Made by a program: the position numbers and the translations under genes. Of a stretch of DNA of 64,000 nt, positions 3,753-63,740 are shown in pieces (within the stretch, counting starts at the first letter, position 1; each line of letters begins with the position of its first letter). The DNA is from a bacterium. Its GTDB lineage: Bacteria > Sysuimicrobiota > Sysuimicrobiia > Sysuimicrobiales > Segetimicrobiaceae. The stretch spans positions 3,093 through 67,092 of the forward strand of contig DATGFS010000042.1 in assembly GCA_035308905.1 (NCBI GenBank), given 5' to 3'. The notes beneath the pieces were generated by a model. It had not been told where the DNA came from, did not search any database, and worked only from the letters and a program-made list of their open reading frames with translations.

Positions 3753-4874
3753 GTGGACCGGGCCCTACGGACGCCGCTGTGTGATCTTCTTCATATCGAC
3801 TACCCGATCATCCAGTCCGGCATGGGGAATGTCGCCGGTCCCGACCTCGTGGCCGAGGTGGCAAAGGCGGGCGGACTGGGCATCTTGGCCGGGCTCGGCG
3901 TTCCGCCCGACGAGCTGAGCCGGCGCATCCGGCAGGTGCGCGAGCTGACCGATCGTCCTTTCGGCGTCAATCTCTGGCTGCACACCGAACTGCGGCCGCC
4001 CGTCGATCCGGCGACCATTCCGGGCGAGACCGTGGCCGCCGTGCAGGGCACGCTCAATCGGTTCCGTGGGCGCCTCGGAGTGCCCGCGACCGACGCGCGT
4101 CCGCCGCGGCTCCCCGACCTCGTGGATGCGCAGTTCGACGTGATCCTGGAAGAGCGCGTTCCGGTATGGAGCATTGGCTTGGGCAACCCCGGTCCCGAAA
4201 TGGTGCACCGCTGCCGCGAGCGCGGCGTCAAAGTCCTGGCGATGGCGGCGCGGCTCGACGACGCGAAGGCGCTCGAGCGGTCCGGGGTGGATGTGATCGT
4301 CGCTCAAGGCGGGGAGGCCGGGGGCCATCGGTCCACGTGGGTGAAAACCCGTACCGCGGAAGAGGCAAGCGTCGGCCTCGTAGCCCTGGTGCCTCAAATT
4401 GTCGACGCGGTCCGGGTTCCGGTCGTCGCGTCAGGCGGTATCGTTGACGGCCGTGGGCTCGTTGCCGCGCTCGCCCTCGGCGCGCAGGGGATTCTCCTCG
4501 GGACGCGATTCGTCGCGACGCGAGAATCAACGGCCCCGGAGTTTTACAAGCGGGCGCTCATCGAGCGCGACGGGAGCGCGACGTCGGTGACCGACGCGTT
4601 TACCGGTCTCTTCGCGCGGGCCCTGCGCAATTCGTACGCGGAGGAATACGCGCGGTCCGGCGCCCCGGTCCTGCCGGGTCTCGCCCAGCGGGCCGCCGCG
4701 CAGGACGTGTTCACCGCGTCCGCGGCGCGAGGGACCGGAGAGTACTTCCCGATGTTTGCGGGCCAGGGCGTCGGCTTGATTCGCGACCTGCCGGGCGCCG
4801 GCGACGTCGTGCGGACGATCGCCCAGGAGGCGCGGGCCGTGCTGGCGAGTCTTCGCGTCGAAGACCTTCCATAA
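3753..4874 (+). CDS. Nitronate monooxygenase (NMO / 2-nitropropane dioxygenase family, FMN-dependent)
   Basis: LLHIDYPIIQSGMGNVAGPDLVAEVAKAGGLGILAG…VVASGGIVDGRG: NMO signature; start ambiguous (GTG 3753 or ATG about 3693). Confidence 0.75.
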   Translation: MDRALRTPLCDLLHIDYPIIQSGMGNVAGPDLVAEVAKAGGLGILAGLGVPPDELSRRIRQVRELTDRPFGVNLWLHTELRPPVDPATIPGETVAAVQGTLNRFRGRLGVPATDARPPRLPDLVDAQFDVILEERVPVWSIGLGNPGPEMVHRCRERGVKVLAMAARLDDAKALERSGVDVIVAQGGEAGGHRSTWVKTRTAEEASVGLVALVPQIVDAVRVPVVASGGIVDGRGLVAALALGAQGILLGTRFVATRESTAPEFYKRALIERDGSATSVTDAFTGLFARALRNSYAEEYARSGAPVLPGLAQRAAAQDVFTASAARGTGEYFPMFAGQGVGLIRDLPGAGDVVRTIAQEARAVLASLRVEDLP

Positions 4875-4875
4875 T

Positions 4876-5922
4876 ATGGCGAAGTCCATGCCGGCCGACA
4901 AGAGGCCGGCCACCGTGAAATCAAAGCGCGAGTCGCCGCGAAGCGAGGAGCGTGCCGGCCGCCTGCCGGCGGACCGGCTGCTCGAGATGCTCTACTTCAT
5001 GCGCCTCCAGCGCGCCGTCGAGGACCGAGGCGTCAAACTCTACTACCAGGGCCGCATTCCGGGCGCGTACTTCACGGGGTGGGGCCACGAGGCGATCGTC
5101 GTCGGCGCCGCCGCGGCACTCGCTCCCGACGACCTGCTCGCCCCGATGCATCGCGATCTCGCCGCGTACATCATGCGCGGCATCACGGTCGGCGAAGTCT
5201 TTGCACAGTTCCTCGACCGCGAAGGCGGCCCGACGCGGGGGCGCGACGGCAACGTCCACATGGGCGACCCGCGCCGCGGGATTCTGCCGTTCATCAGCCA
5301 CATGGCGGCCTCCGTGCCGGTCGCGGCAGGCATGGCGCTCGCGTGCCGGCAGCGCGGCGAAGCCCGCGTCGTCCTGACCTTTTTTGGCGACGGCGCGACG
5401 AGCACGGGCGCATGGCACGAAGGCGTCAACTTCGCCGCGGTGTTCCGGCTGCCGGTCGTCCTCGTGCTCGAGAACAACCAGTACGCGTACTCGACGCCGC
5501 TCGACCGGCAGACCGCGGCGCAGGCGTTCGTCGACAAGGCCGCGGGATACGGGATCCCGGGCGTGGCGGTTGACGGCAACGACGTGCTGGCGGTCCACGA
5601 GGCAGCGGCGGCGGCGGTGGTGCGCGCGCGGGACGGGGCGGGTCCAACGCTCATCGAGTGCCGCACGCTCCGCGTCCGCGGGCACAGCGAAGCCGACAAG
5701 TTCTCATACGTCCCGAAGGCCCTGCTGGAGGAGTGGGCCGCCCGGGACCCGATCGTGGCGTTCGAGGAGCGGCTGCGGGCCTGGGGCGTGCTCAGCGCCG
5801 AGATCGACGAGGCGATGCAGTTCCGGGTCGCGCAGGACGTCGAGGACGGTCTCGCCTGGGCGGAAGCGAGCCCCGAGCCGGATCCGGCCACGGTTACGCA
5901 CGGCGTGTACGCCGAAGAATGA
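4876..5922 (+). CDS. Thiamine-diphosphate-dependent 2-oxoacid dehydrogenase E1 component, alpha subunit
   Basis: YYQGRIPGAYFTGWGHEA…FFGDGATSTGAWHEGVNFAAV…ENNQYAYSTP: TPP-binding E1 alpha motifs. Confidence 0.85.
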   Translation: MAKSMPADKRPATVKSKRESPRSEERAGRLPADRLLEMLYFMRLQRAVEDRGVKLYYQGRIPGAYFTGWGHEAIVVGAAAALAPDDLLAPMHRDLAAYIMRGITVGEVFAQFLDREGGPTRGRDGNVHMGDPRRGILPFISHMAASVPVAAGMALACRQRGEARVVLTFFGDGATSTGAWHEGVNFAAVFRLPVVLVLENNQYAYSTPLDRQTAAQAFVDKAAGYGIPGVAVDGNDVLAVHEAAAAAVVRARDGAGPTLIECRTLRVRGHSEADKFSYVPKALLEEWAARDPIVAFEERLRAWGVLSAEIDEAMQFRVAQDVEDGLAWAEASPEPDPATVTHGVYAEE

Positions 5923-5974
5923 CGGACGGGGCGGCGCGGCCGGCCGGGACCGCGCGGCCGCGGAAGGAGCGGCG

Positions 5975-6949
5975 GTGGCGCAACTGACGTATCTCGAGGC
6001 GATCCGCGAAGGGCTTCGCGCGGAGATGCGGCGCGACCCCCGCGTGTTCGTGCTGGGCGAGGACATCGGCGTCTATGGCGGCGCGTTCAAGATCACCGAG
6101 GGGTTCCTCGACGAGTTTGGTCCGTGGCGGGTCATCGATGCGCCGCTCGCGGAAACCGCCAACGTCGGCGCCGGGATCGGCGCGGCGGTGATGGGGATGC
6201 GGCCGGTCGTCGAGATGCAGTTCGCGGATTTCGTCACGGACGCGTTCACCCAGGTCGTGAACATGGCGGCCAAGTACCACTGGCGGACACGGATGCCGCT
6301 GCCGCTCGTCCTGCGCATGCCGTACGGCGGCGACGTCAAGGGCGGCCCGTTCCATTCGCAGTGCATGGAGGCGTGGTTCGCGCACACGCCCGGCCTCAAG
6401 GTCGTGGCTCCCGCGTTCGCCGAGGACGCGAAGGGCCTGCTCGTCGCCGCGATTCGCGATCCGAACCCCGTGATGTATTTCGAGCACAAGCACCTCTACC
6501 GCTTCCGGCGGGAGGAGGTGCCCGACGGCGAGTACGCCACGCCGATCGGGCGCGCCCGACTGGTCCGCGAGGGGACCGCGCTGTCCGTGATCTCGTACGG
6601 GTGGATGCTCCACAAATGTCTGGAGGCGGCCGGTCTCGCCGCGGCGGACGGCATCGCGGCGGAGGTGCTCGATCTGCGCACGCTCGCGCCGCTCGATCGC
6701 GATGCGATTCTCACGTCGGTGCGCAAGACCGGCAAGGCGCTCATCGTGCACGAGGCGTCGCGGACCGGCGGCATCGGCGGCGAGATCGCCGCGCTGATCG
6801 CCGAAGAGGCCTTCGACTCGCTGGACGGCCCGGTCATCCGTCTGGCGAGCGAAGACACACCGGTGCCGCACAACACCGGCCTCGAGGCGGCGTTTCAGCC
6901 GACGGTCGCGGAGATCGCGGACGCGATGCACCGGCTGGCCGCGTACTGA
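5975..6949 (+). CDS. 2-oxoacid dehydrogenase E1 component, beta subunit
   Basis: GTG start 7 nt after AAGGAGC; MAQLTYLEAIREGL…VFVLGEDIGVYGGAFKITEGF…: transketolase-like E1 beta. Confidence 0.85.
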   Translation: MAQLTYLEAIREGLRAEMRRDPRVFVLGEDIGVYGGAFKITEGFLDEFGPWRVIDAPLAETANVGAGIGAAVMGMRPVVEMQFADFVTDAFTQVVNMAAKYHWRTRMPLPLVLRMPYGGDVKGGPFHSQCMEAWFAHTPGLKVVAPAFAEDAKGLLVAAIRDPNPVMYFEHKHLYRFRREEVPDGEYATPIGRARLVREGTALSVISYGWMLHKCLEAAGLAAADGIAAEVLDLRTLAPLDRDAILTSVRKTGKALIVHEASRTGGIGGEIAALIAEEAFDSLDGPVIRLASEDTPVPHNTGLEAAFQPTVAEIADAMHRLAAY

Positions 6950-45337: not shown

Positions 45338-45610
45338 ATGGCGCAGGTATATCTGCCGACGCCGCTGCGCCGGCTGACGAACGGCCGGGCGCGCGTCCTC
45401 ACGGCGGGCGGCACGGTCGAAGAGGCGCTCGCCGATTTGGAACGGGAATTTCCCGGGCTGCGGGAGCAGCTGCGCGACCCAAACGGCGAGGTGCGCAGCT
45501 TCATCAACGTGTTCGTCAACGGGACGGAGATCCGGCGGCTGCAGGGCGCGGCAACCCCGGTCCATGCGACCGACGAGATCTCGATCGTTCCCGCAATGGC
45601 CGGAGGCTAG
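45338..45610 (+). CDS. cysO: MoaD/ThiS-family sulfur carrier protein (CysO-like), C-terminal GG
   Basis: 90 aa beta-grasp ending …VPAMAGG; genomic context with cysM and mec. Confidence 0.75.
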   Translation: MAQVYLPTPLRRLTNGRARVLTAGGTVEEALADLEREFPGLREQLRDPNGEVRSFINVFVNGTEIRRLQGAATPVHATDEISIVPAMAGG

Positions 45611-45671
45611 CGCGGTGGAGCTCTCGCTGCGCCGCCGCCCGCCCGCGGCACCGCCTGCCGGTGCGGGGGCC

Positions 45672-46481
45672 ATGCCGGCGCTGCGGGTCTGGGCGACGGA
45701 CCGCCTGCTGCTGCACGAGGAGGCGGACGCCGCGCGGGTCCGGCGCCTCGAGGACGCGCTTCGGCGCGACGGCGTGCTGCGCAATCCGCCGATCGTCGCG
45801 CCCCTCGAGGACGGACGCGCCGTCGTGCTCGACGGCGCGAACCGCGTCACCGCGCTTCGCGCGCTCGGGCTGCCCCACGTGGTCGCGCAGCCGGTCGCCT
45901 ACGACGATCCGCACGTCGGCCTCTTGGTTTGGCGGCACTATGCGGCGGAGGCTGCTCCGGGTGCGCTCCGCGCGGCCGTGTCGGCCGCGGGCTTTGGGAT
46001 CACGGCGCCGGCCGGGGACGAGGCCGGCGCGGAGTCGCAAATCGCCGCGGGCGGCCTTGCCGCGATCGTCGATGCCCGGGGCGGGGTCGTGCTCCGGTGC
46101 GCCGGCGGGCCGGCGGCCAACGCCGACGCGCTGTGCCGGTTGACGGCGCTCTACCGGGACGGACGGCCGGTCCACCGCGTCGAGGCCGGCAGGCTCGATG
46201 ACCTGCGCGGCGCTTACGGCCCTGGGGCGCTGGTGCTCTTCCGCCGCTTCGAGAAATCGGACATTCTCGATCTCAGCCTTGCCGGCGGGCGCCTGCCCGC
46301 CGGGATCACGCGGCACGTCATTCCGGGACGGGCGCTGCGCGTGAACACGCCGCTCGCCTGGCTGGCGGATGGGATCGACCTGGGCGTCAAGCAGGCCGCG
46401 CTGGACGCGCAGGTCCAGCAGCGATGGCAGGCGCACGGCGTGCGCTACTACGCCGAGCCCACGTTCTTGTTCGACGAGTAG
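45672..46481 (+). CDS. ParB/sulfiredoxin-fold (ParB N-terminal-like) domain protein of unknown function
   Basis: N-terminus …VLRNPPIVAPLEDGRAVVLDGANRVTALRALGLPHVV… resembles the ParB/Srx NTP-binding motif; alternative GTG start at 45615. Confidence 0.45.
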   Translation: MPALRVWATDRLLLHEEADAARVRRLEDALRRDGVLRNPPIVAPLEDGRAVVLDGANRVTALRALGLPHVVAQPVAYDDPHVGLLVWRHYAAEAAPGALRAAVSAAGFGITAPAGDEAGAESQIAAGGLAAIVDARGGVVLRCAGGPAANADALCRLTALYRDGRPVHRVEAGRLDDLRGAYGPGALVLFRRFEKSDILDLSLAGGRLPAGITRHVIPGRALRVNTPLAWLADGIDLGVKQAALDAQVQQRWQAHGVRYYAEPTFLFDE

Positions 46482-46484
46482 GGG

Positions 46485-47450
46485 ATGACGGCTCCGTCCC
46501 GCGCCACCCGCGGTCCGTCCCCGCGCCCGGCGCACCGGCCGGCGGGAACGTCTCTGCTCGACCAGATCGGCAACACCCCGCTGCTGCGGCTCGAGCGCGT
46601 GACGGCCTCGCTTCCGTCCGCGGTGGAAGTCTACGTGAAAGCGGAGTGGTTCAATCCCGGCGGGTCCGTCAAGGACCGGCCGGTTCTACGCATGCTCACC
46701 GACGCGGAGCGCGACGGGCGCCTCAGGTCGGGCGTCACCATTCTCGACTCTACCTCCGGCAACGCCGGGATCGCCTATGCAATGATCGGCGCCGTGAAGG
46801 GCTATCCCGTGGAGCTCGTGATGCCCGCGAGCGCGAGCGAGGAGCGCAAGCGGATCATCGCGGCCTACGGCGCGCGCATTGTTCTCTCCGATCCACTGGA
46901 GGGCAGCGACGGGGCGATCTTGCTCGCCCGGCAGGTCCACGCCGGCTCCCCGGACCGGTACTTCAAGCCGGACCAGTACAATAATCCGTCCAATCCGCTC
47001 GCCCACTACGACACGACGGCGGTCGAGATCCTCGAGCAGACGTCCGGCCGGGTGACGCACTTTGTCGCCGGTCTCGGTACAACCGGGACCGTGGTCGGCG
47101 CGGGCCGGCGGCTGCATGAAGCGGACCCGCGCATCCGGGTCGTGGCCGTGGAACCGGACGCGCCCCTCCACGGGCTCGAAGGGCTCAAGCACATCGCCTC
47201 GTCCATCGTGCCGGGAATCTACGATCCCGCGGTACACGACGATAAGGTAAGTGTCACGACCGAAGCCGGGTACGCGATGGCGCGGCGGCTTGCGCGGGAG
47301 GAAGGCATGCTGGTCGGCGAGTCCGCGGGCGCCGCCGTGGAGGCGGCGCTGCATGTCGCGGCGGATCTTCCTCGCGGGGTGATCGTGGTGATCGCCCCCG
47401 ACGCGGGGGACCGCTACTTCAGTACGGCGCTGTGGCGCGGCCTGACCTGA
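46485..47450 (+). CDS. cysM: PLP-dependent cysteine synthase (CysM-type, CysO-thiocarboxylate/O-phosphoserine-dependent)
   Basis: …NPGGSVKDR…TSGNAGIAYA…GTTGT… PLP fold-type II motifs. Confidence 0.8.
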   Translation: MTAPSRATRGPSPRPAHRPAGTSLLDQIGNTPLLRLERVTASLPSAVEVYVKAEWFNPGGSVKDRPVLRMLTDAERDGRLRSGVTILDSTSGNAGIAYAMIGAVKGYPVELVMPASASEERKRIIAAYGARIVLSDPLEGSDGAILLARQVHAGSPDRYFKPDQYNNPSNPLAHYDTTAVEILEQTSGRVTHFVAGLGTTGTVVGAGRRLHEADPRIRVVAVEPDAPLHGLEGLKHIASSIVPGIYDPAVHDDKVSVTTEAGYAMARRLAREEGMLVGESAGAAVEAALHVAADLPRGVIVVIAPDAGDRYFSTALWRGLT

Positions 47451-47503
47451 GCGCGGCGATTCGTGTTACAATTGTGGGCGGAAGGATCGGTGGATGCCAG
47501 GCG

Positions 47504-47941
47504 GTGGCGGTCCGGCTGACACAAGCGCAGTTCGAACAGATTCTCGCTCAAGCGCGCGCCGAAGCGCCGCATGAGTGCTGCGGGCTGTTGCTGGGCCGGG
47601 GCGATGCCGTAGAGGAAGTGTTCGCAGGGCGGAACGTGGACGAGACACCCGAAACGCGCTACGTCATGGATCCGTTGGATGAGTTGCGGGCGTTTCGCCT
47701 GATGGACGAGCGCGGGTGGCAACTAGTCGGAATCTATCATTCCCATCCGCTGACGGAGGCTTACCCGAGCGAGACCGACAAGAACCGCGCGCGTGACGAC
47801 AAGGACCGACCGCTCTTTCCGGGTGCGCGCTACGTGATCGTCTCGCTGAAGGAACCGGGGAATCCTCGGATTCGAGCCTTCCGGCTCGACGGGGCGGACA
47901 AGGCAAAATCGGTCCCCGAAGAGGACGTGGTGGTGACGTGA
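47504..47941 (+). CDS. mec: JAMM/MPN+ metalloprotease (Mec+/CysO-cysteine peptidase)
   Basis: …ECCGLLLG…, JAMM motif [14 protein letters not shown]; alternative GTG starts at 47432 and 47474. Confidence 0.75.
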
Positions 47942-48366
47942 AGGTCAGCACTCGGGCGGAATACGGAATTCGCGCGCTGATCGACCTCGCTCAGCACTTC
48001 GGAGAGGGGCCGGTGCAGAGCCACGAGATCGCGCGCCGCCAGGGCCTTCCCGAGCCGTACCTCAACCAGCTGCTGACGACCCTGCGGCGGGCGGGCCTCG
48101 TGCAGAGCAAGCGCGGCCCGAGCGGGGGCCACATGCTCGCGCGCTCGCCGGAAGGCGTCACGATCGGCGAGGCCTTTCTCGCTCTCGAGGGCAGCGTCGC
48201 GCCCTGGCTGTGCGTGGAGGACGAGGACGCGCACTGCATCTACGCACCGGGGTGCGGGCTGCGGCCCGTCTGGCAGGCCGTCAAGGCCGCGACGGAGGAC
48301 GTGCTCAACCGCACCACCCTCGCCGACGTCGTCGGGCGCCCGCTGGCGCCGCTCACGAAGGCGTGA
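47938..48366 (+). CDS. Rrf2 family (CymR/IscR-like) transcriptional regulator with three-Cys cluster
   Basis: wHTH N-terminus ([15 protein letters not shown]…), [15 protein letters not shown]; GTGA overlap with mec. Confidence 0.8.
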
Positions 48367-49028
48367 CGGCCGCGCCCCGCGGCGGCTGCCAGCACGTCGA
48401 GGCTCCGTCCCGCGCGCTCGAGCCGGCGTCTTCCGACGCGGGCGGGCCCGCCGCGCCGGGTTCCCGCGACACGTACGAGCATCTGATCTCCGCCCACCTC
48501 GACGGACTCTACAGCACCGCCCGCCGGCTCACGCGCCACGCCGCGTCCGCGGAGGACCTCGTCCAGGAGACGATGCTCAAGGCGTGGCGGTCCTTCCACA
48601 CGTTTCAGCCGGGCACCAACGTCCGGGCGTGGCTCTACCGGATTCTCATGAACACGTACTTCGACGCGCAGCGCAAGCGCTCGCGCGAGCCGGAGATCGT
48701 CGCCGCGGACGACGTCGGCGACCTCTACCTCTACAGCCGGGCGCGCGACGGCGCCGCGCTCGGCGAATCCGGTAATCCGGAGTTCCTGGTGCTCGACCAC
48801 ATCCTGGACGCCGAGATACGGGAGAGCCTCGAGGCGCTGCCCGTGCCGTTCCTTGCCGCGGTGCTGCTCGTCGACGTCGACGGGTTCGCGTACAAGGAGG
48901 CGGCCGACGTGCTCGGCGTTCCGGTCGGCACGGTGATGTCGCGGCTCTACCGCGGCCGGCACGCGCTGCGGCGCCGGCTCGTCGACTATGTCCGCCGCCG
49001 GCGTCTCGTCCACGGGGGCGGCGTATGA
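48363..49028 (+). CDS. ECF (sigma-70 family, SigH/SigR-like) RNA polymerase sigma factor
   Basis: Region 2 [17 protein letters not shown]…[12 protein letters not shown], region 4 …[34 protein letters not shown]; start uncertain. Confidence 0.75.
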
Positions 49029-49249
49029 ACTGCCGGGAATGCCTCGATCAGATGTGGCAGTACATCGACGGCGAGCTGGACATCGCGTCGAGCGATGAGC
49101 TGCAGCGCCACCTCGCGCAGTGCCGCGAGTGTTTCTCCCAGGCCGAGCTCGAGCGCCGCCTCAAAGACATGATGCGGCGCGCGTGCGGCGGCGAGCACGC
49201 GCCCGCGCGTCTGCGCGAGCGCCTCGCGAAGATTCTGCAGCTCTATTAG
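49025..49249 (+). CDS. Zinc-binding anti-sigma factor (ZAS family, RsrA/RshA-like)
   Basis: [10 protein letters not shown]…HLAQCRECF: HxxxCxxC ZAS motif; ATGA overlap with the sigma factor stop. Confidence 0.7.
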
Positions 49250-49281
49250 CGGGGGGGCGCGCGCCCCCGGTGCCGCATCCT

Positions 49282-55231: not shown

Positions 55232-55308
<77 letters not shown>

Positions 55309-55466
55309 AATAGTGAAGGCCTGGGACGCCCGGAACGCTTGATACTCAAGCGTTTCGGGCTCTCGGCTTTTCTGGGGGGTTTGTTACCTGGGTGCCCGCC
55401 GGTACCCGGGAATACCGGCCAGAGGGGTCCGCACAGGGGTCCGCACAAAATCGCAGGAGGGCTCGG

Positions 55467-56789
55467 GTGGCCAAGCTTGTCCGGGAAGGAGGCAACGGCA
55501 GTCGGCAGGTCCGGCGGCCGGACGGACACGCGGAGCAATATGCACGCTCGCCCCGTTGGCGCGTCCGCTTCGTTGTGTCCTATCCGGACGGCTCGCGGAC
55601 GATCCGCTCGAAATTGACGCCGCGGAAGGCCGAGGCTGGCCTCCTGCGAACCGAGGCCAGTCGCTTCGAGCGCCTGAGCCGGACCGGCACGGCGACCCAG
55701 CAGGATCTCGGGCACTTCCTACGCTTGGGCCTCATCTCCAGAGATGACTACCTGCGACTCGGCGGCACGCAGCTCGACATGAGTTGGGACGAGGTGCTCT
55801 CGACCTATATCTCGAGCTCATACGGCCGGTGCCGGTACTTCACCCACCGGAACAACGCGGCTCGCGCGGAGCGCATCGTGGCGTTCCTTCGTGAGCGGGC
55901 AGCCGTTGCGCGAATCGCCGATGAGGACATCCGCGCCTACCTGACGTCCCGATCCTCCGAAGTCAGCAAGAAGACGCTGAAGATCGAGCTCGACGTCGCG
56001 CGACAGTTGTTGGATCACCCCGTCGGCCGCGGGGTCCTCCGGCAGCCGCCGTGGAACCTGCTCATGTCCGCGAACCCGGCGCGGCGTGTCAACGGGTTCG
56101 AGAGCACCGTCGCCCGCACACGCTTCCCGCGGGCGCTCAGCTACGAGGAGGACCTGCAGCTCCTGGCCCTGGTGCGAGATATGGAAACCGCCTCACCCGC
56201 GCTGGCGGGAGCAATCCTGCTTCTTCGGTTCTACGGTCTCCGTCGGGCGGAGCTCCAGTACCTCACCCATGCGGACCTGGTCGGATCGGCGGTGCTCGTG
56301 CAAGCCAAGGCGGTCCGCCCGGATCTGCTTGGGCCGAGCCGGTCCAGCGCCTCGCCGGCCGGCCGCCATCGCAACGTCGTCGAGCGGCGGGAAACGCGGG
56401 ACCAGTTCAAGGACGGCATGTGGCGCGTCAAGGATCATGAGGCGCGGACCATCTGGATGCCCGGGGCCGGCGACGATCCAGATCCGAGGCCGATGCAGCG
56501 CATCCGCCCGCTGCTGCCGTCCAAAACCGCGGGTCGGTTCGTCCTCGGCGGCCACCATACGCTGCATCGCGACGCGATTTCAGCGGCGGTGGAGCGGGTG
56601 CTCCACCGAATCGATGCCGCTCTCACCACCCACTGTCTGCGGCACAGCTTTGCGACGTCGCTCATCGGGCGCGGCGTCAATGTGGTGCGTGTGAAGGAGT
56701 TGATGGGGCACAGCGACCTGAAGACGACGCTGGTGTACACACACCTACCACGCCGCGGCGATCCCGACGACCTGCTCGATCACCTGTAG
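55467..56789 (+). CDS. int: Tyrosine-type site-specific recombinase/phage integrase
   Basis: C-terminal catalytic motifs …HCLRHSFATSLIGRGVNVVRVKELMGHSDLKTTLVYTHL; GTG start 7 nt after AGGAGGG. Confidence 0.85.
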   Translation: MAKLVREGGNGSRQVRRPDGHAEQYARSPRWRVRFVVSYPDGSRTIRSKLTPRKAEAGLLRTEASRFERLSRTGTATQQDLGHFLRLGLISRDDYLRLGGTQLDMSWDEVLSTYISSSYGRCRYFTHRNNAARAERIVAFLRERAAVARIADEDIRAYLTSRSSEVSKKTLKIELDVARQLLDHPVGRGVLRQPPWNLLMSANPARRVNGFESTVARTRFPRALSYEEDLQLLALVRDMETASPALAGAILLLRFYGLRRAELQYLTHADLVGSAVLVQAKAVRPDLLGPSRSSASPAGRHRNVVERRETRDQFKDGMWRVKDHEARTIWMPGAGDDPDPRPMQRIRPLLPSKTAGRFVLGGHHTLHRDAISAAVERVLHRIDAALTTHCLRHSFATSLIGRGVNVVRVKELMGHSDLKTTLVYTHLPRRGDPDDLLDHL

Positions 56790-56919
56790 GCCTATCATCT
56801 GGTCGTTGGAGTCAAACGCAAGACCTATCCGGGCTCCTCGTTGCGCTCGGGCGGGAATGGCCCATCTGCGGTCCCTATTGTGTGGTGGGGGCACCGGTCA
56901 ACGACGAGGAGGGTTCCAC

Positions 56920-57180
56920 ATGAGTAGCGAGCAGAACATCGATATAACCGTGGTCGTGTCGGGGCAAGCCGAGCGGCTAAAAATCAATGTGCATCAGACG
57001 CTTGAGCAACTTGTCCGGGATGCGCTTCAGAGGAGTGGCAACCAGGGGCAGCCACCGTCGGACTGGGAGCTAAGGACGGAGAACGGCACCTTGCTCAACC
57101 AGAGCTTGACGGTCGCGGCCGCCGGCCTCAAGGATGGGATGACGCTGTTCCTCAGCCCGAAGGCCGGCGCCGGCGGGTAG
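56920..57180 (+). CDS. Ubiquitin-like beta-grasp protein ending in Gly-Gly (BilA-like Ubl)
   Basis: 86 aa; ubiquitin-like alternating hydrophobic pattern (IDITVVVSG…LKINVHQTLEQL…GMTLFL) and C-terminal …PKAGAGG; RBS GAGGAGGG. Confidence 0.65.
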   Translation: MSSEQNIDITVVVSGQAERLKINVHQTLEQLVRDALQRSGNQGQPPSDWELRTENGTLLNQSLTVAAAGLKDGMTLFLSPKAGAGG

Positions 57181-57189
57181 GAACGGCTG

Positions 57190-57903
57190 ATGGTCCTTGT
57201 TGCACCGGAGGTCACGCGGCGGAAGGTCGAGCGGGAACTCAATCTTTGGCGTGAGAACGAGGAAATCTATCGCCGCCGCGGGTGGATCCTCCTCGGCCAC
57301 CACGACCAAGAAGTCGACGTGGGTTTCCTCGGACAGCTTCCGCTCGGCGCCCGGCCGATCCCGGTCATGGCCGCCTGCGTGAGGATCGACTTCACCAACT
57401 TCGATCTTTGGGCTCCATCGGTCGAATTTATCGACCCCATGACCGGCGAGTATACCCCGCCGATCGTGCAGGCGCTCGTCGAAACTGACGAGGGGCCGCG
57501 CAATCTCATCGTCTTCAGCCACCCGGACACGAACCGGCCGTTCTTCTGCGTCCCCGGCATCCGCCAATACCACGAACACCCGCAGCACTCCGGCGACTCC
57601 TGGTTCCTGCACCGCAACACGGGCGAGGGCAGCTTGGCGACGATCTGCGATCGCGTGTGGCGTGCTATGGCGCGAAACCTTCTCGGCATCCATCTCGAGA
57701 TGCAGACGGTGCCGGGGCAGCTAAAGCTCCAACTCCGCCTCCAGAACGCGCCGGGCGAGGTGGTACCAGTATTGTGGGAGAACATCAGGCAGGCTCAGCA
57801 GGCGACGCGCGTTGCCCAGGCGGGCGGCGTTGTAGGTCAACCCATCCCGCCGGAAATCCTCGCCATGCTCGGGATCGGTTCCCCGCCACAGGTGCCAAAG
57901 TGA
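57190..57903 (+). CDS. E2-like ubiquitin-conjugating (UBC-fold) protein (BilB-like)
   Basis: N-terminal helix (RRKVERELNLWREN…), YP..PP-like strands (VRIDFTNFDLWAPSVEFIDPMTGEYTPP), and HPD followed nine residues later by Cys (FSHPDTNRPFFCVPGI), reminiscent of the E2 HPN…C active site. Confidence 0.55.
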   Translation: MVLVAPEVTRRKVERELNLWRENEEIYRRRGWILLGHHDQEVDVGFLGQLPLGARPIPVMAACVRIDFTNFDLWAPSVEFIDPMTGEYTPPIVQALVETDEGPRNLIVFSHPDTNRPFFCVPGIRQYHEHPQHSGDSWFLHRNTGEGSLATICDRVWRAMARNLLGIHLEMQTVPGQLKLQLRLQNAPGEVVPVLWENIRQAQQATRVAQAGGVVGQPIPPEILAMLGIGSPPQVPK

Positions 57904-58379
57904 CGCTCGAAGGCGTCCGCGAGTTCATCGTCCCACTGCAGCTCCTCGATCAGGTCCTCGAAGCGCTCCAGGAGGCTGGACGCCACGGCTACGAGGCGTT
58001 CATCCTGCTGGGCGGTCACCTCGTTGGGGAGAAGCGCTTCGAGTTCCTGTCCGTGTACTTGCCTGAGCAGAAGACCAGTCGGGGTGCGGAGGGATTACTC
58101 ATCGTCGTCGACGGCGATGCGCTTTTCCGCGCCAATCGCGCCTTCTACCGGCGTGGCCAAATCCTCGGCGCTCAGATCCACAGCCACCCAGCCTCTGCCT
58201 ACCACTCGTCGACCGATGATACCTATCCGCTAGTGACCCTATTGGGCGGTCTATCGGGCGTTGTCCCTGATTTCGGCGAGGGCGGGCGTGCTCGGCTAGA
58301 CTACTGGGCCTGGTACCGGCTGGTGGGGGTTGGACAGTGGGCGCCAATTGGCGATGAAACAAGGATCACGTTTCGATGA
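57900..58379 (+). CDS. JAMM/JAB (MPN+) isopeptidase (BilC-like deubiquitinase)
   Basis: Conserved Glu (GYEAFILLGGH) and JAMM motif HSHPASAYHSSTDD; GTGA overlap with the upstream gene. Confidence 0.7.
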   Translation: MTLEGVREFIVPLQLLDQVLEALQEAGRHGYEAFILLGGHLVGEKRFEFLSVYLPEQKTSRGAEGLLIVVDGDALFRANRAFYRRGQILGAQIHSHPASAYHSSTDDTYPLVTLLGGLSGVVPDFGEGGRARLDYWAWYRLVGVGQWAPIGDETRITFR

Positions 58380-59974
58380 GCCTTCCCCGCTTCCTTGACC
58401 GCGTCGTCGATGCGGCCGCGCCGGTGCTCGGTGGGATTGATCGCTCAGCAATGCGGGCCAAGCTCGAGAGTTCCTCGATCGCGCTCGTTGCTGGTGACAA
58501 GGCCGCTGAAGGCGCGGGCCGCGCCGGCTTCCTTCTCGCGGCGAACCTCGCCGCGCGGATTTACCCACGCATCTGTCTTCGCGGTCCCAACGAGCTGATA
58601 CGCGCAGCCGAGAGTGAAATCATCCTCATCAACCCGCGCGCCGATATGACCGGCGGCAACGATACGACTACACCGACGCTGTCGTACGAGACCGTCGCCG
58701 ACGCGGACGCGGCCGTATCAGTTTTCGCCCGCGGTTGGAATGTTTACGTTGATACTACCCCTGATGACCATACTCCAGCCGCAGCCTCGGCGGCGCTCGC
58801 CGCGGCGGCGTTCGGGATGGGGGATCTCTTCCGCCTCGTTTTCGCCGCGGAACTAGGTGACCGTGGCCGCCGTCGGCCGCAACCCGGCTCACTCAACCTC
58901 GTCACGCTCGGCGACCCACAGCACCTGCCGGTGCCGGCCGGTGTCGAGGTGTCGACGTTTCGCCTCATCGGCGTCGGGGCGATCGGGCAAGCCACGGCCC
59001 AAACGCTCGCCCTCTCCGGCGTCCGGGGAACCATGGTCGCGGTTGATCCCGAGAAGGTGGTGCTGTCAAACCTGCAGCGCTACGTGCTCACGCGCGACGC
59101 GGACGTCGACGCCGCGAAGGTTGAGTTGGTCCGAGAGCGACTGGACCAGTCCACACTCCAGATCCTCCCGGTAGCTGCCATCTGGCACGCGGACCTTGTT
59201 GAGGAACAACTGCCAACGTTAGTCGCGGTCGATTCCGCAGAGGCGCGGATCGCTGTCCAGGCGAGCCTGCCTGGACCGATCTACAATGCGTGGACGCAGC
59301 CAGCCGACATCGGCTGGTCGCGACACGAGCATTTCGGCGAGGAGCCGTGCCTCGCATGCCTCTACTGGCCGGACCGCAAGCGGCCAAGTCGGCATGAGCA
59401 GATTGCCGCCGCGTTCCGTCAGCACCCGCTGCGGGTTCTAGTCTACCTCCTCCGGCGCTTACCCGTCGGCTTGCCGGTACCGCCGGGCGGGATCCCTGTC
59501 GTGCCCGGACTAGACGCCCCGGCCGACGCTGATCGATGGCTCCAGACGGCGCTCGTCGACGACATCGCCGCGGCGGCTGGTGTCGACCCCTCCGAGCTCG
59601 TCTCTTGGCGTGAGCGGTCATTAGCTGACGTGTACCAGGACGGCATATGCGGTGGGACCCTCCTACACCTGAACATCGGTGAAGCGCCGCGTGAAGTCGT
59701 CGTTCCGCTTGCTCATCAATCAGCACTTGCCGGCGTGATGCTGGCAACGGAATTCATCGTTGCCGAGGTCCCTGAACTCGCAGCTGCACGGCCGTCCACG
59801 ATCGAGGCTCGCTACGACCCGCTTGCGGGGCTACCGCAGGTCCTCGCGCGCCCCCGAATGCGCGCCGATGGGTGTCTTTGCGCAGACACGTTCTTCCGCG
59901 CCGCCCATCGCGAAAGGACGGCCGGAGGCGACGGGGACGCCGAACCCGAAATGCTCAAGGGTGAGGTGACCTAA
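58376..59974 (+). CDS. E1-like ThiF/MoeB-family activating enzyme with about 190-aa N-terminal extension (BilD-like)
   Basis: Rossmann nucleotide loop FRLIGVGAIGQATAQTLALSG…VAVDPEKVVLSNLQRY, downstream CxxC (EEPCLACLY); ATGA overlap with the JAB gene. Confidence 0.7.
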   Translation: MSLPRFLDRVVDAAAPVLGGIDRSAMRAKLESSSIALVAGDKAAEGAGRAGFLLAANLAARIYPRICLRGPNELIRAAESEIILINPRADMTGGNDTTTPTLSYETVADADAAVSVFARGWNVYVDTTPDDHTPAAASAALAAAAFGMGDLFRLVFAAELGDRGRRRPQPGSLNLVTLGDPQHLPVPAGVEVSTFRLIGVGAIGQATAQTLALSGVRGTMVAVDPEKVVLSNLQRYVLTRDADVDAAKVELVRERLDQSTLQILPVAAIWHADLVEEQLPTLVAVDSAEARIAVQASLPGPIYNAWTQPADIGWSRHEHFGEEPCLACLYWPDRKRPSRHEQIAAAFRQHPLRVLVYLLRRLPVGLPVPPGGIPVVPGLDAPADADRWLQTALVDDIAAAAGVDPSELVSWRERSLADVYQDGICGGTLLHLNIGEAPREVVVPLAHQSALAGVMLATEFIVAEVPELAAARPSTIEARYDPLAGLPQVLARPRMRADGCLCADTFFRAAHRERTAGGDGDAEPEMLKGEVT

Positions 59975-59978
59975 TTAG

Positions 59979-60704
59979 GTGGACGCCCTTGAAGAACTCA
60001 ACCGGCGCGGAACGGCGCTCCTGGCCGAGCTCGCGGCTAACCCTGAAAGCGAGTGCTGGCGCCAGTTCGACGCCCTCTTCTACGAGATCATTTGGCGGTG
60101 GATCCGTGCAAACCATGCGACGATGGCAGCCCGCGTCGCCCGGTACCTCCAGGTCGAGTGGATCGGCGGCGTGGATATCCTTCCCGAGGAAGTCGACGAA
60201 GTGGCCCACGAGGCCACTAAAGTTGCGCTTCAGCGGGTGCGGAAGAATGCCGCGCGTTTCAACCCGAACAGAGGTACGCCGGTCCAGTGGGTCATAGGCG
60301 CCGCCGCTTATGCCTATGTCGACGAGGCAAGGAAGGTTTTGAAGGCGCGCCAACCGGATAAGTTCGTCGCGCTTGGGGATCTCGATGAGCCGCCTGATCC
60401 GACCCCGACACCTGAAGAAAGAGTCCTCCGCGGAATGGAGGACACTGCAGCGCTCGATGATGCCGCCCGCCATCTCACCGAGAAGGAGTTCACGGCCATT
60501 CGCCTTGTAGTAACGGCCGGATACAGCTACGCCGAAGTGGCGAGGATGATCTTCGGCGATGAAAACATGACGAAGCAGGTCGATGGGCTTCTGACGCGCG
60601 CGAAAGCTAAGTTGACCGAAGCATGGGCAAATAGAAAACAACAGGCGCGCACTGACGCAACGCCGACGGCTGCCCGCCGTGCCAAGGAGGAGGGAGACCT
60701 ATGA
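59979..60704 (+). CDS. Sigma-70 family (ECF-like) sigma factor-like protein encoded within the island
   Basis: Region-2-like …TPVQWVIGAAAYAYVDEARK… and region-4 HTH LTEKEFTAIRLVVTAGYSYAEVARMIFGDENMTKQVDGLLTRAKAKL; GTG start 5 nt after the E1 stop. Confidence 0.5.
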   Translation: MDALEELNRRGTALLAELAANPESECWRQFDALFYEIIWRWIRANHATMAARVARYLQVEWIGGVDILPEEVDEVAHEATKVALQRVRKNAARFNPNRGTPVQWVIGAAAYAYVDEARKVLKARQPDKFVALGDLDEPPDPTPTPEERVLRGMEDTAALDDAARHLTEKEFTAIRLVVTAGYSYAEVARMIFGDENMTKQVDGLLTRAKAKLTEAWANRKQQARTDATPTAARRAKEEGDL

Positions 60705-60934
60705 GCGAGGGCGTCATCCGTGGGTTACCGGCTGCTCTCGCGGTGCTACTGCGCGACCCGAGTGTGATCGTCCCACAGGACGCGGCGGTCTTCGAGTTGA
60801 TCGCCGCGTGGGCCAAGGCTCCAACTGCGACAGCAAGCGCCGACGTTATGGTGACATCGGATGGCAAACTATTCGAAACGCTTCGCCGGCAGACTAAAAT
60901 GACGTCATCGACTATAATGGCGGGTTGCCGTTAG
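60701..60934 (+). CDS. Hypothetical small protein translationally coupled to the sigma-like gene (candidate anti-sigma/partner)
   Basis: ATGA overlap with the upstream stop; 77 aa; no recognizable motif. Confidence 0.35.
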   Translation: MSEGVIRGLPAALAVLLRDPSVIVPQDAAVFELIAAWAKAPTATASADVMVTSDGKLFETLRRQTKMTSSTIMAGCR

Positions 60935-61040: not shown

Positions 61041-61550
61041 TCATTCTCCCGATCGCCGCCACTGACGAAGACGGTCGTTAACTTCCGCTTGCGGCAGCCA
61101 TCGGTTGTTTTCCACCATCCTCCGTAGCGCGGCCGCCGCCTGTTGACGAGGCACGAGGTCGTTGCGAACCAAGAAATCGAGTATCCATAGCGTGCCGTGG
61201 ACGGGAATGCCTTCCTGTTCGGCTGCCTCACGAAGGCTTTTGTCGCTCGTGACAAGAGTAGCGTGCTCGGCCTTTGCCAGGACGAGGCAAAACAGGTCGG
61301 CGCGAGACGGCCCGAGATATCGTTGCGCCAGCGCGACAACTTCCTCGACCTGGTCGCCGGTCAGTTCCCGCTTTTGCAGCCCAAACCGGAGCAGTCTCTC
61401 CGCATGCGCTGGTTCCAGTTCTTCTTCCACCACGACATCGGGTGCCAGCCACACGGTCGGGAGTCGGAAGACGTACCGTGTTATCCCGCCTTCGCGCAGG
61501 TCAACCAGCAGCGTGGTGTCCGAGACGCACGGCGATGGGAATCCCGCCAT
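61041..61550 (-). CDS. PIN domain nuclease (VapC-like)
   Basis: N-terminal Asp (VSDTTLLVDL), central acidic residues, C-terminal T-x-D (LVTSDKSL); downstream of and overlapping the HTH-ImmA gene. Confidence 0.5.
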   Translation of the reverse strand: MAGFPSPCVSDTTLLVDLREGGITRYVFRLPTVWLAPDVVVEEELEPAHAERLLRFGLQKRELTGDQVEEVVALAQRYLGPSRADLFCLVLAKAEHATLVTSDKSLREAAEQEGIPVHGTLWILDFLVRNDLVPRQQAAAALRRMVENNRWLPQAEVNDRLRQWRRSGE

Positions 61551-62592
61551 GATCGCGTTTGACCTCGCGCTGGAAATCCTTGAACGACATGCCTAGCAAT
61601 TCTGTCGCGCGGCTCTCTGAAATGGCGCCCTCGGACCAAGCATGCATGACCAACTGCTCGAGGCGCTCCGAACGTTCCGGCGGGTATGGATCTCCCGGCT
61701 CTTTGACATGCCACCCTTGTGCCTTAAACGCTTTGAAGAGGGCTAAGGCATCTGCGTCGGTGAGGATGCCAAGATCCTTCGCGCGGTAGATCCAGGCTTG
61801 CATGCTAAGTCCGTACTTGTGTTTCAGTAGATGGAGCTCGTACGGCGTGAATGTATGCCGCCGGTCCCCAATCTCAGCCACGGCGGCTTGCCGCGGGACA
61901 ACAAAGGCGCCGGCAAAACGAAAGGCCATCCTTTCCTCATCGACACCCGGACCGGGTTTGAGAAGAAGATGTCCTAGTTCGTGCGCGAGATTCATCCGCT
62001 GACGATCTCCCGGTAGACTCTCTTTTAGCGCAATAACCGGGGTCTGCTTCTCGGGACCGAGCCAAAAGGCGCATGCGTCAAACTTGTGATGCGCATCCAC
62101 GGCGCCTACCTTGATACCGTGGTCCTCGAGCAGCTTTGTTAGGTTTTCGATTGGGTCGACGCCCACTTGCCAGGCCTTCCGTAGAGCCTCGGCCGCCGTT
62201 TCGGTATCAGGCAACTGCCCGATCGCGAACGGAAATCCCTCGGGATACGTGAAGGGTACCTGTCGGCGGGTAAGGGTCTCGATTTCAAGATATCGTTCGA
62301 GCCACTCTCGTACCCTGGCGAGCGCGGCCTCCTCTTTGCGTCGCGGAAGAGCGGCACGCTTCCGGAAAACAGGTTGCAGCACAATGTCACTCTTGGGACG
62401 CACGAAGTACTCGACTCGGACGCCCAGTGCTTTCGCGAGGCGCAGAAGCACTCCGGACCCCGGCTTGTCTAGGCCGCGCTCATACTTGGAGATTGCCTGA
62501 GCGCTCACACCTACACGGTCGGCGAGATCGCGAAGGCTCAGGCCGGCCATGAGACGGGCTTCCTTAATGCGCTCTCCAACCGTCGTAATCAC
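61501..62592 (-). CDS. XRE-family HTH fused to ImmA/IrrE (M78) zinc metallopeptidase domain
   Basis: HTH (GERIKEARLMAGLSLRDLADRVGVSAQAISKYERG) followed by HEXXH (LAHELGHLLL). Confidence 0.75.
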   Translation of the reverse strand: MITTVGERIKEARLMAGLSLRDLADRVGVSAQAISKYERGLDKPGSGVLLRLAKALGVRVEYFVRPKSDIVLQPVFRKRAALPRRKEEAALARVREWLERYLEIETLTRRQVPFTYPEGFPFAIGQLPDTETAAEALRKAWQVGVDPIENLTKLLEDHGIKVGAVDAHHKFDACAFWLGPEKQTPVIALKESLPGDRQRMNLAHELGHLLLKPGPGVDEERMAFRFAGAFVVPRQAAVAEIGDRRHTFTPYELHLLKHKYGLSMQAWIYRAKDLGILTDADALALFKAFKAQGWHVKEPGDPYPPERSERLEQLVMHAWSEGAISESRATELLGMSFKDFQREVKRDHGGIPIAVRLGHHAAG

Positions 62593-63720: not shown

Positions 63721-63740
63721 AATCCTGCCCCCGCTACCAA
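63721..63740. repeat. attR core: second copy of the 20-bp direct repeat
   Basis: Identical to 55290-55309. Confidence 0.85.

Follow-up and report, generated by a model that had tools for sequence, protein, structure and literature searches.

A 64,000-nucleotide stretch of the bacterial contig DATGFS010000042.1 (the window) carries four consecutive genes, bilA to bilD, for a ubiquitin-like protein (Ubl), a conjugating enzyme (E2), a JAB-type deconjugating peptidase and an activating enzyme (E1). In identity and chemistry this set is very probably a Type II BilABCD system of the CEHH or "6C" class, as judged from homology, and the cascade is a member of a family that is already characterized structurally and biochemically. 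The operon is longer than the cascade. A gene for a sigma-like protein (gene 5) and one for a 77-aa protein (gene 6) follow bilD, and a conserved promoter-like motif precedes bilA. Taken as a whole, the data are best explained by a Type II Bil conjugation system on a tRNA-Met integrative island, likely controlled through genes 5 and 6 and probably directed against phages or other mobile elements, and we hold this explanation with good confidence. An earlier reading made from the DNA letters alone (the sequence-only reading) had considered a divergent or undescribed variant. The four-gene core is known Type II, and the novelty lies elsewhere, in the two extra genes, in the sigma-linked motif that also precedes neighboring genes, and in the gene 6 module that phages share. 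The Bil papers covered mention none of the three, with the supplementary operon tables outside this comparison.

Among bacterial systems, Type II Bil operons stand closest to the E1-E2-Ubl machinery of eukaryotes. Gong et al. describe what they target, and with what biological consequences, as "thus far unknown." The actinobacterial form described here gives handles on the trigger and the targets of Type II systems, namely, a sigma-like regulator, a short conserved promoter and a phage-shared partner.

The four-protein conjugation cascade

Tight coupling of four same-strand genes, with ribosome-binding sites and GTGA and ATGA overlaps, had been described in the sequence-only reading, and its coordinates were confirmed: independent gene calls on the source contig, a 176.8-kb contig of a soil metagenome-assembled genome (ENA ERZ27279685), gave identical boundaries for bilA to bilD (Table 1). 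bilA has an ATG start with the ribosome-binding site GAGGAGG 7 nt 5' of it. bilC starts with GTG within its GTGA overlap with bilB, and bilD starts with ATG within its ATGA overlap with bilC. The operon had been thought to end at 59974, but two further coupled genes extend it to 60934.

When the window proteins were compared with Pfam, BilA matched DUF2604/YukD (7.5e-22), BilB matched Metal_CEHH, which is the Y4jH-like family PF14455 (6.6e-35), and BilD matched ThiF (5e-13); the match of BilC to Prok-JAB was weak (0.003). BilA ends in ...SPKAGAGG at the stop codon. BilB has HPD at residues 111-113 and the cysteine Cys120, BilC has the JAMM residues E32, H94-S-H96 and D106, and BilD has a GVGAIG loop, C325xxC328, C425 and C500xC502.

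A sequence search against all Protein Data Bank (PDB) chains gave a more specific answer. All four proteins matched the crystallized Type II proteins of Ensifer aridi TW10 (PDB 8TYX, 8TYY, 8TYZ, and 8TZ0) at 1.6e-12 to 1.6e-45, which bears out the proposed Ubl-E2-JAB-E1 set of the bilABCD kind. The best match of BilB was 8TYZ_C, E2(BilB), at 1e-26; that of BilC was 8TYX_B, DUB(BilC), a deubiquitinase-like chain, at 4.2e-21; and that of BilD was 8TYZ_A, E1(BilD), at 1.6e-45 across residues 1-518. The top match of BilA was the Methylobacterium BilA 8U38 (7e-14), with E. aridi 8TYX_A/8TYZ_B at 1.6e-12. Over the four proteins, identity to an E. aridi operon was 31-40%, with 40% for BilA.

All residues that Chambers et al. 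(PMC10557695) mutated or described for catalysis or zinc binding align with identical residues in the window. In the E2, C138 and H151 of E. aridi correspond to C120 and H133, both of which are invariant in the BilB alignment. In the E1, R9 corresponds to R9, R246 to R235 and C417 (in ICGG) to C425, and the zinc site C340/C343/C491/C493 corresponds to C325/C328/C500/C502. In the deconjugating enzyme, E33 and D106 correspond to E32 and D106. Two checks set out in the sequence-only reading, whether the 237-aa protein has a UBC fold with a well-placed catalytic cysteine and whether the 86-aa protein is a beta-grasp protein rather than a sulfur carrier, were both answered in favor of conjugation because of homology to crystallized BilB and BilA. 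By alignment, the 237-aa protein is a homologue of BilB in which Cys120 falls on the catalytic Cys138, and the 86-aa protein matches crystallized BilA, not ThiS.

By alignment, BilD also has the domain architecture of its family: an inactive adenylation domain at the N terminus (with Arg9), an active adenylation domain (with Arg235), a domain that bears the catalytic cysteine (CYS domain, Cys425) and a Cys4 zinc site formed by C325, C328, C500 and C502. It aligns with the BilD inactive adenylation domain from residue 1 and is 532 aa long, compared with 535 aa in E. aridi. The 190-aa N-terminal extension that the sequence-only reading had regarded as a peculiarity of this E1 is thus the canonical inactive adenylation domain of the family. 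As in the E1s of eukaryotes, this domain forms a pair with the active one (Chambers et al., PMC10557695).

In general, the window operon and that of E. aridi encode the same four proteins in the same order, with a single beta-grasp Ubl with a reactive C-terminal Gly, a CEHH E2 with a Cys and an adjacent His, a JAMM enzyme with the Glu/Asp pair, and an E1 with both adenylation domains, the CYS domain and the Cys4 zinc site. The four E. aridi proteins form a working Ubl-lysine conjugation pathway that the JAMM enzyme reverses; the CEHH protein, formerly a "predicted metal-binding domain," was recognized as a diverged E2, and the CEHH/"6C" operons were renamed Type II BilABCD (Chambers et al., PMC10557695). 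The label "6E-type" used in the sequence-only reading does not apply, as the same authors equate CEHH with the "6C" class. Unlike the E. aridi operon, that of the window adds the sigma-like gene, the 77-aa gene and the conserved promoter-like motif. The host in our analysis belongs to the Actinomycetota, whereas E. aridi is one of the Rhizobiaceae.

A further difference from E. aridi is that the window Ubl needs no C-terminal trimming. BilA ends at the reactive Gly without a tail, as in most members of its clade (four relatives have tails of 4-7 residues), and across the Type II family this tail is 0-9 residues long (Chambers et al., PMC10557695). Since BilA is encoded already ending in Gly, BilC would be needed only for deconjugation and not for precursor processing. 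A different arrangement was seen in two unrelated Type II Bil loci, where Ubl and E2 lie in a single open reading frame (ORF) without an intervening stop: L074 6218-7609 (Methylorubrum podarium, ...KAGVAG followed directly by EMQSVDE...) and L081 6620-7570 (Adhaeribacter soli, ...MAGGGG followed directly by TKAICYSNEMDAV...). If they are not assembly errors, these would be Ubl-E2 fusion precursors that need cleavage by BilC.

On the model of E. aridi, for which all of these steps have been demonstrated biochemically, the cascade would run as follows. BilD would adenylate Gly86 of BilA, using Arg9 of the inactive domain and Arg235 of the active domain, and BilA would then be held as a thioester on Cys425 of the mobile CYS domain. 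From there, it would pass to Cys120 of BilB, with His133 adjacent, while BilB docks on a BilD loop stiffened by the Cys4 zinc site. BilB would join BilA to target lysines by an isopeptide bond without an E3 ligase, and BilC would remove BilA from the conjugates.

Genes 5 and 6 and the promoter-like motif

The six-gene layout is a property of a clade. E2 homologues with 75%, 65% and 58% identity on long contigs, together with two contigs reached from gene 6, were compared with the window. Four of the five contigs had the layout Ubl-E2-JAB-E1-~245 aa-~75 aa, and the flanks of these four intact loci were otherwise unrelated. The fifth (L091) was fragmented, with its E1 truncated and no gene call for the E2. 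For a wider view, one genome per species was scanned with the E2 alignment, and the resulting 80 loci were annotated by iterated hidden Markov model searches from the six window proteins. The A-B-C-D order was present in all 80. Genes 5 and 6 were directly 3' of bilD in all 9 intact loci of Gaiellaceae, Thermoleophilia and Solirubrobacterales. Apart from a few loci with a separate gene 5 homologue, considered below, the other loci had neither gene; they belong to Bradyrhizobium, Rhizobium, Mesorhizobium, Sinorhizobium, Methylobacterium, Sphingomonadales, Bacteroidota, Acidobacteriota and further groups. Annotated plasmids of rhizobia carried plain four-gene operons. There was no match of gene 5 to PLSDB plasmids (tblastn) and none of the E1, BilD, to cultured phage genomes.

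Several loci depart from this layout. In the Nocardioides locus L024 (region 4244-6444; similar in L026 and L028), the sigma-like gene lies upstream of bilA, and in place of gene 6 it is followed by two other genes, one for a P-loop protein of 294 aa (GCPGAGKT) that looks kinase- or zeta-toxin-like by eye and one for a protein of 173 aa. Here, the same sigma gene and promoter motif are accompanied by other accessory genes. L014, from a metagenome-assembled genome labeled Dormiibacterota, has a truncated E1 match and lacks genes 5 and 6, and in L016, an inverted E1-like fragment takes the place of the region downstream of the E2. The latter two suggest decay or rearrangement of the bil cassette.

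Gene 5 is a candidate divergent sigma factor of the extracytoplasmic function (ECF) type, on the grounds of weak similarity in sequence and in a predicted structure. Sigma70_r4_2 matched 7 of 14 gene 5 orthologues (best, 6.8e-8), with the window protein itself below threshold. When a profile of the 14 orthologues was compared with the PDB, CnrH matched at 2.2e-4 over profile positions 65-215, which cover both domains, followed by RpoE, SigK and SigE. The iterated gene 5 search recovered annotated ECF sigma factors from the 80 loci, and some homologues are named sigma-24 or sigma-70 family by JGI and NCBI. The AlphaFold2 (AF2) model, built from 34 sequences, had a predicted local distance difference test score (pLDDT) of 75.8 and consisted of two helical domains joined by a disordered linker (residues 128-155). 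With Foldseek against the PDB, the top 13 matches of this model were all sigma factors, mostly ECF, as were almost all later ones; they included SigE, SigH, SigL, SigK, AlgU, BldN, SigW, CnrH and RpoE (best E value 3.7e-4, probability 1.0). No link of Type II Bil with a sigma factor was found in the literature searched.

A promoter-like motif lies upstream of bilA. In the window, it is the single match in 64 kb, compared with 0.06 expected. The 220 nt upstream of bilA in 13 clade loci were unalignable save for three elements: GGCGGGAA-N15/16-CCCTATA(G), GGCA about 10 nt further, and the ribosome-binding site AGGAGG. A scan of the bil operon for consensus sigma-70 promoters and terminators gave only chance-level matches. 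The -35-like element GGGAA resembles the GGAAC-type -35 of many ECF promoters.

A loose form of the motif was then compared with the presence of gene 5 in the upstream regions of 84 distinct loci (the 80 genome-scan loci, the window and three others), which are not phylogenetically independent, so that the counts have to be read with this in mind. Both were present in 13 loci and both absent in 65. Three loci had gene 5 without the motif, each with a CCTACA variant, and three had the motif without gene 5, of which two are truncated or disrupted clade loci and one looks like chance. Even so, the motif goes with the sigma gene in both of the gene arrangements observed.

With a stricter pattern, 23 matches were found in 1.18 Mb of loci, 17 just upstream of bilA and 4 just downstream of gene 6. 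The downstream copies (GGGAAT-N16-CCCTATA) in L003 (11828), L005 (11798) and L013 (10805) precede a DUF2188 gene, in L005 a DUF4238 gene as well. That in L092 (7278-8925) precedes a CD-NTase and Cap15 pair of a cyclic oligonucleotide-based antiphage signaling system (CBASS) and then type I restriction-modification. These second copies suggest a small regulon with one promoter type. For motif and gene 5 together, the simplest reading would be autoregulation, in which the gene 5 sigma factor transcribes its own operon and sometimes its neighbors.

Gene 6 gave no match in Pfam, in the PDB profile search or in PHROG. Its C terminus is usually ...AGC plus 0-1 residue, with the Cys mostly but not always conserved. 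An ATGA-coupled pair of a sigma gene and a gene for a small protein is the usual sigma/anti-sigma arrangement, and from its position and its ATGA overlap with the sigma gene, the gene 6 product is a candidate anti-sigma factor or partner.

A gene 6 profile searched against 1.84 billion representative proteins recovered 173 clusters. Matches of about 74-80 aa cover the whole protein, and most others cover only positions ~3-50. This N-terminal module of about 45 aa, LPxDLAxxLRDxSxxVPQDAAVFELIAxWAxAPSxTAS, has no Pfam or PHROG family and sits in proteins that are otherwise unrelated and 100-564 aa long, where Cys-rich or coiled-coil stretches often flank it. In phage and prophage proteins, the form ...LRDxSIIVPQDAAVFELIAKWxNAPSxTAS... 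is very highly conserved (L093 8001-9605, L094 6082-6759, L096 966-1148 and P0300-P0442). These proteins, which vary in their other parts, are of actinobacterial-type phages and prophages, and in many of them a further motif, MTVDEWRQAW, and a coiled coil come after the module.

Two module proteins could be placed on contigs. Both lie in phage-type early regions, in runs of small overlapping ORFs with genes for an HNH endonuclease, a Rad52-like recombinase, RusA, a PAPS-reductase-like protein and an integrase. Neither a gene 5 homologue nor the promoter motif was found in these two phage-like contigs. In IMG/VR, the module was found in three viral contigs, one of which has a 60-aa ORF 73% identical to gene 6 residues 8-48 beside an integrase and a large terminase gene; gene 5 has no relative in IMG/VR. 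A phage-type module protein gave no match to cultured phage genomes.

Third codon positions of the module differed at 0.36-0.52 per site, compared with 0.11-0.25 for first and second positions, and this excess of 2-4 times held for comparisons inside the Bil set, inside the phage set and of one set with the other. Thus, the module is conserved at the protein level, and the idea of a conserved DNA or RNA element was rejected on the same excess. There are three candidate accounts of the sharing. The module may be a sigma-binding element of which phages carry a mimic that keeps the defense sigma factor silent, the phage proteins may be what the switch senses, or gene 6 may pair with the phage protein and present it to the E2. 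The sharing points to candidate triggers or counter-defenses.

Two groups of known regulators are comparable with this pair. Like the ECF sigma/anti-sigma pairs CnrH-CnrY, SigK-RskA and SigE-RseA, the window has a sigma2-sigma4 protein followed by a small overlapping gene, a GGGAA-type -35 and likely autoregulation. It differs from them in its weak similarity, in the place of the pair at the 3' end of an enzyme operon, in a partner without a known anti-sigma domain and in the recurrence of the partner module in phage proteins. CapW, CapH plus CapP, and CapK plus CapS, found on CBASS, Bil and Bub operons, are likewise small regulatory modules that adjoin an immune operon and are thought to switch it on after a signal. 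These modules are repressor based and DNA-damage responsive, whereas that of the window consists of a sigma-like activator and a small partner, and in the window clade, the same promoter motif also precedes neighboring modules. CapH/CapP is present in about 15% of Type II Bil operons (Chambers et al., PMC10557695; Gong et al.).

Function of the operon and competing explanations

In the proposed scheme, which is specific to the actinobacterial clade, the gene 5 sigma factor would transcribe the operon from GGGAA-N15/16-CCCTATA, and the gene 6 product would restrain it until a signal arrives, after which positive feedback would follow. Sigma-dependent control of the operon is the likelier case. 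A role in defense against phages or other mobile elements is slightly favored by the island and defense-island contexts, the precedent of Type I Bil systems and the phage link of gene 6. A fuller version is possible but rather unlikely: genes 5 and 6 may form a phage-responsive transcriptional switch over a small defense regulon, with the gene 5 sigma factor driving bilABCD and, elsewhere, CBASS or DUF2188/DUF4238 modules, the 77-aa protein acting as anti-sigma factor, and the phage module being either the sensed factor or a phage mimic. If this were true, a bacterial ubiquitination system would for the first time be seen under sigma-based control, and phages would have a counter-move to match. 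If it is true that the shared promoter co-controls CBASS and others, several defense systems would stand under one alternative sigma factor.

Several observations count against the explanation as a whole. The -10-like CCCTATA is unlike the classical ECF -10, which is usually of the CGT type, and the motif may instead be the operator of another regulator. Similarity of gene 5 to sigma factors is weak (E values, 1e-4 to 1e-2; template modeling [TM] scores, 0.26-0.41), low TM scores being expected because the two domains differ in mutual orientation. The AF2 model of gene 6, with 3-4 short helices and a disordered tail, is of low confidence (pLDDT, 61), and the protein has no detectable similarity to any known anti-sigma factor. 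Loci of Nocardioides and Micromonospora and one related locus have their gene 5 homologue upstream of bilA, at a distance of 0.1-2.5 kb, and gene 6 was not found in them. Phage defense by a Type II Bil operon, or a natural target of one, appears neither in this analysis nor in the Bil literature covered. In the E2, the signature Glu of CEHH (E144 in E. aridi) is Gln126 in the window, with the signature His (H146) kept as His128, and the actinobacterial BilB proteins (230-246 aa) lack a stretch of about 19 aa in the loop from beta4 to the catalytic Cys of rhizobial BilB.

The E2 differences are features of the clade. The Glu is replaced by Gln in every actinobacterial BilB aligned, so that the signature there reads CQHH. 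Gln126 does not exclude Type II membership, since the Glu was called purely structural and is not conserved in Type I (Chambers et al., PMC10557695). Actinobacterial BilB also lacks the 11-aa insertion near the C-terminal helix of the rhizobial proteins and adds about 55 aa at the C terminus, a tail in which NAPGEV... and ...AALG patches are conserved. The unusually large E2 with a C-terminal extension, singled out in the sequence-only reading, thus has a real tail, but one that is found clade-wide. The beta4-Cys loop of E. aridi BilB was proposed as a target-recognition element (Chambers et al., PMC10557695). With this loop missing, the clade-specific tail is the obvious candidate for a target-recognition surface, and comparison of the two E2 forms, loop versus C-terminal tail, could locate the substrate-binding surface.

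Among the alternatives, the best is that the same Type II Bil chemistry serves host stress response or signaling, with BilA attached to host proteins, possibly including the sigma factor or gene 6 product, and transcription changed as a result. We consider this possible but rather doubtful. It has been left open that Type II Bil and Bub pathways may be stress responses (Gong et al.), and conjugation by E. aridi BilBD is non-specific, onto E. coli proteins and BilA itself (Chambers et al., PMC10557695). The sigma-like regulator to which the operon is tied is a signaling device, and gene 6 has a conserved Lys in WAKAP. On the other hand, the operon moves horizontally on islands and regions like integrative and conjugative elements, with varying neighbors, CBASS and restriction-modification adjoin it in L092, and the gene 6 module is common to phage proteins. 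Such features are typical of conflict systems and not of housekeeping signaling.

It is unlikely that genes 5 and 6 are passengers beside bilABCD and the motif an ordinary promoter or another factor's operator. The separate, upstream position of the sigma gene in the Nocardioides and Micromonospora loci, the lack of a sigma gene in 65 of 84 loci and the indirect case for promoter recognition by this sigma factor would fit. However, in every intact clade locus, stop codons adjoin or overlap the next start and the genes keep one order, although the flanks are unrelated, and the motif follows the sigma gene in both arrangements within otherwise unalignable DNA.

The sequence-only reading had likened the operon to bilABCD operons that conjugate a Ubl to phage tail proteins as antiviral defense. 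[quoted passage not shown] The Type I system (ISG15-like, Collimonas sp. OK412; Hör et al.) shares with that of the window the Ubl-E2-JAB-E1 order, a cascade that needs no E3, and a Gly at the C terminus of the Ubl. That the window operon is itself of Type I and tags central tail fibers is very improbable. Beyond the shared order, the PADLOC models BilC (6e-9) and BilD (2e-14) gave weak matches. Type I Ubls are two fused beta-grasp domains, whereas the 86-aa BilA has one, and the Type I E2 lacks the E/H residues of CEHH, whereas BilB has this Type II-defining signature and the nearest structures are those of Type II proteins. The PADLOC BilA and BilB models did not match the window proteins at E <= 0.1, because of the split between Type I and Type II and not because an E2 is missing.

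Bub operons and CBASS Cap2/Cap3 are also bacterial conjugation systems based on E1, E2 and deconjugating enzymes and tied to defense islands. In Cap2, E1 and E2 are fused, and the protein that it conjugates is a cGAS-like enzyme. DUF6527 (BubE) is encoded in Bub operons (Gong et al.). Neither architecture occurs in the window operon.

Finally, a sulfur-carrier system of the ThiS/MoaD/CysO type, with no protein conjugation, is hardly credible: such carriers share a beta-grasp protein ending in Gly-Gly, a JAMM peptidase and a ThiF/MoeB-type adenylation domain with the operon but belong to different Pfam families and lack an E2, an E1 catalytic-Cys domain and protein conjugation, whereas the window has an E2 with catalytic Cys, an E1 CYS domain, a Ubl that matches DUF2604/YukD and BilA structures and not ThiS, NCBIfam MoeB/ThiF scores of 44-45 bits against cutoffs of 266-377, and a separate CysO-CysM-Mec set 9-11 kb upstream.

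The integrative island and its surroundings

The operon lies on an 8.4-kb tRNA-Met integrative island wholly within the window, as follows from the tRNA gene, the exact 20-nt repeats and the drop in G+C content (GC), from about 72% outside to 56-65% inside (Table 1). The host was read as a Gaiellales-type actinobacterium from soil. An integrase-bearing mobile island in a high-GC genome had been proposed in the sequence-only reading, and the tRNA-Met, integrase, repeats and GC drop agree with it.

Table 1. Positions of the bil operon, the island and other features in the window
Feature	Position	Strand	Description	Evidence
cysO	45338-45610		ThiS family, ends GG	Pfam ThiS
cysM	46485-47450		gene of CysO-CysM-Mec set	
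mec	47504-47941		Prok-JAB protein	Pfam Prok-JAB
tRNA-Met (CAT)	55232..55308	+	integration target, 3' end forms attL	ARAGORN; Rfam tRNA 65.4 bits
attL copy	55290..55309	.	20-nt direct repeat AATCCTGCCCCCGCTACCAA	repeat search, 100% identical, copies 8431 nt apart
Tyrosine integrase	55467..56789	+	440 aa	Pfam Phage_integrase 6.9e-13; PHROG integrase 5e-25
Promoter-like motif	56853..56880	+	GGGAAT-N15-CCCTATTG, ~40 nt upstream of bilA start	pattern scan, clade conservation
bilA	56920..57180	+	predicted single beta-grasp Ubl, 86 aa, mature form ending Gly86	DUF2604, PDB BilA matches
bilB	57190..57903	+	predicted CEHH-type E2, 237 aa, catalytic Cys120 + His133	PF14455, PDB 8TYZ_C
bilC	57900..58379	+	predicted JAMM/JAB deconjugating peptidase, 159 aa	PDB 8TYX_B, PADLOC BilC, Prok-JAB
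bilD	58376..59974	+	predicted E1, 532 aa	PDB 8TYZ_A, PADLOC BilD, ThiF
Gene 5	59979..60704	+	ECF-sigma-like, 241 aa	starts after 4-nt gap from bilD stop
Gene 6	60701..60934	+	77 aa, helical	ATGA overlap with gene 5 stop; conserved in clade operons
PIN/DUF3368 gene	61041..61550	-	island cargo, nuclease-like	DUF3368 2.7e-5, PIN 8e-4
HTH_3 + Peptidase_M78 + UPF0175 gene	61501..62550	-	island cargo, fused (ImmA/IrrE-like), 349 aa	HTH_3 1e-16, Peptidase_M78 1e-13, UPF0175 6.6e-5; PHROG transcriptional regulator 8e-62
attR copy	63721..63740	.	20-nt direct repeat AATCCTGCCCCCGCTACCAA, right island end	repeat search; GC returns to 63-73% just beyond

The island also carries two cargo genes convergent to the bil operon. 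The PIN/DUF3368 gene overlaps the end of the HTH-M78-UPF0175 gene, whose product has the antitoxin-like UPF0175 domain at its C terminus, and the two look like a toxin-antitoxin pair with the antitoxin built into a protease-repressor. This pair did not adjoin the bil operons in the loci of relatives. The same island was found in a second sample (L002, SRR5579862). Near its attR end, L002 8238-9174 has ORFs of 93 and 113 aa where L001 16328-17264 has one of 66 aa, a difference in gene calls that points to small indel variation within the island.

Relatives carry the operon in other settings: beside tRNA-Met, tRNA-His, tRNA-Ser with an integrase, or tRNA-Thr, in a TrwC/integrase region, beside an RHS toxin, and beside CBASS with type I restriction-modification. 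Such varied tRNA, integrase, toxin and defense contexts form the pattern of a horizontally mobile conflict system. In L018 (2837-3064), L015 (4551-4789), L005 (5754-7327) and L021 (5576-5649), the bil promoter lies about 150 nt to 1.9 kb from a tRNA gene; the tRNAs of this set are tRNA-Met (with the same 3' end as the window attL), tRNA-His, two tRNA-Ser with an integrase, and tRNA-Thr. Insertion of the bil cassette next to tRNA genes seems to be recurrent.

The housekeeping cysO/mec pair that the sequence-only reading had placed upstream was also recovered, as a ThiS-family protein ending in GG, cysM and a Prok-JAB protein at 45338-47941. Between cysO and cysM lies a 305-aa ORF (45564-46481) that has no Pfam match. 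In the source-contig gene calls, the genes that come after the cysO-cysM-mec cluster (region 45338-49250) encode an Rrf2 regulator and an ordinary ECF sigma factor with a zf-HC2 anti-sigma factor.

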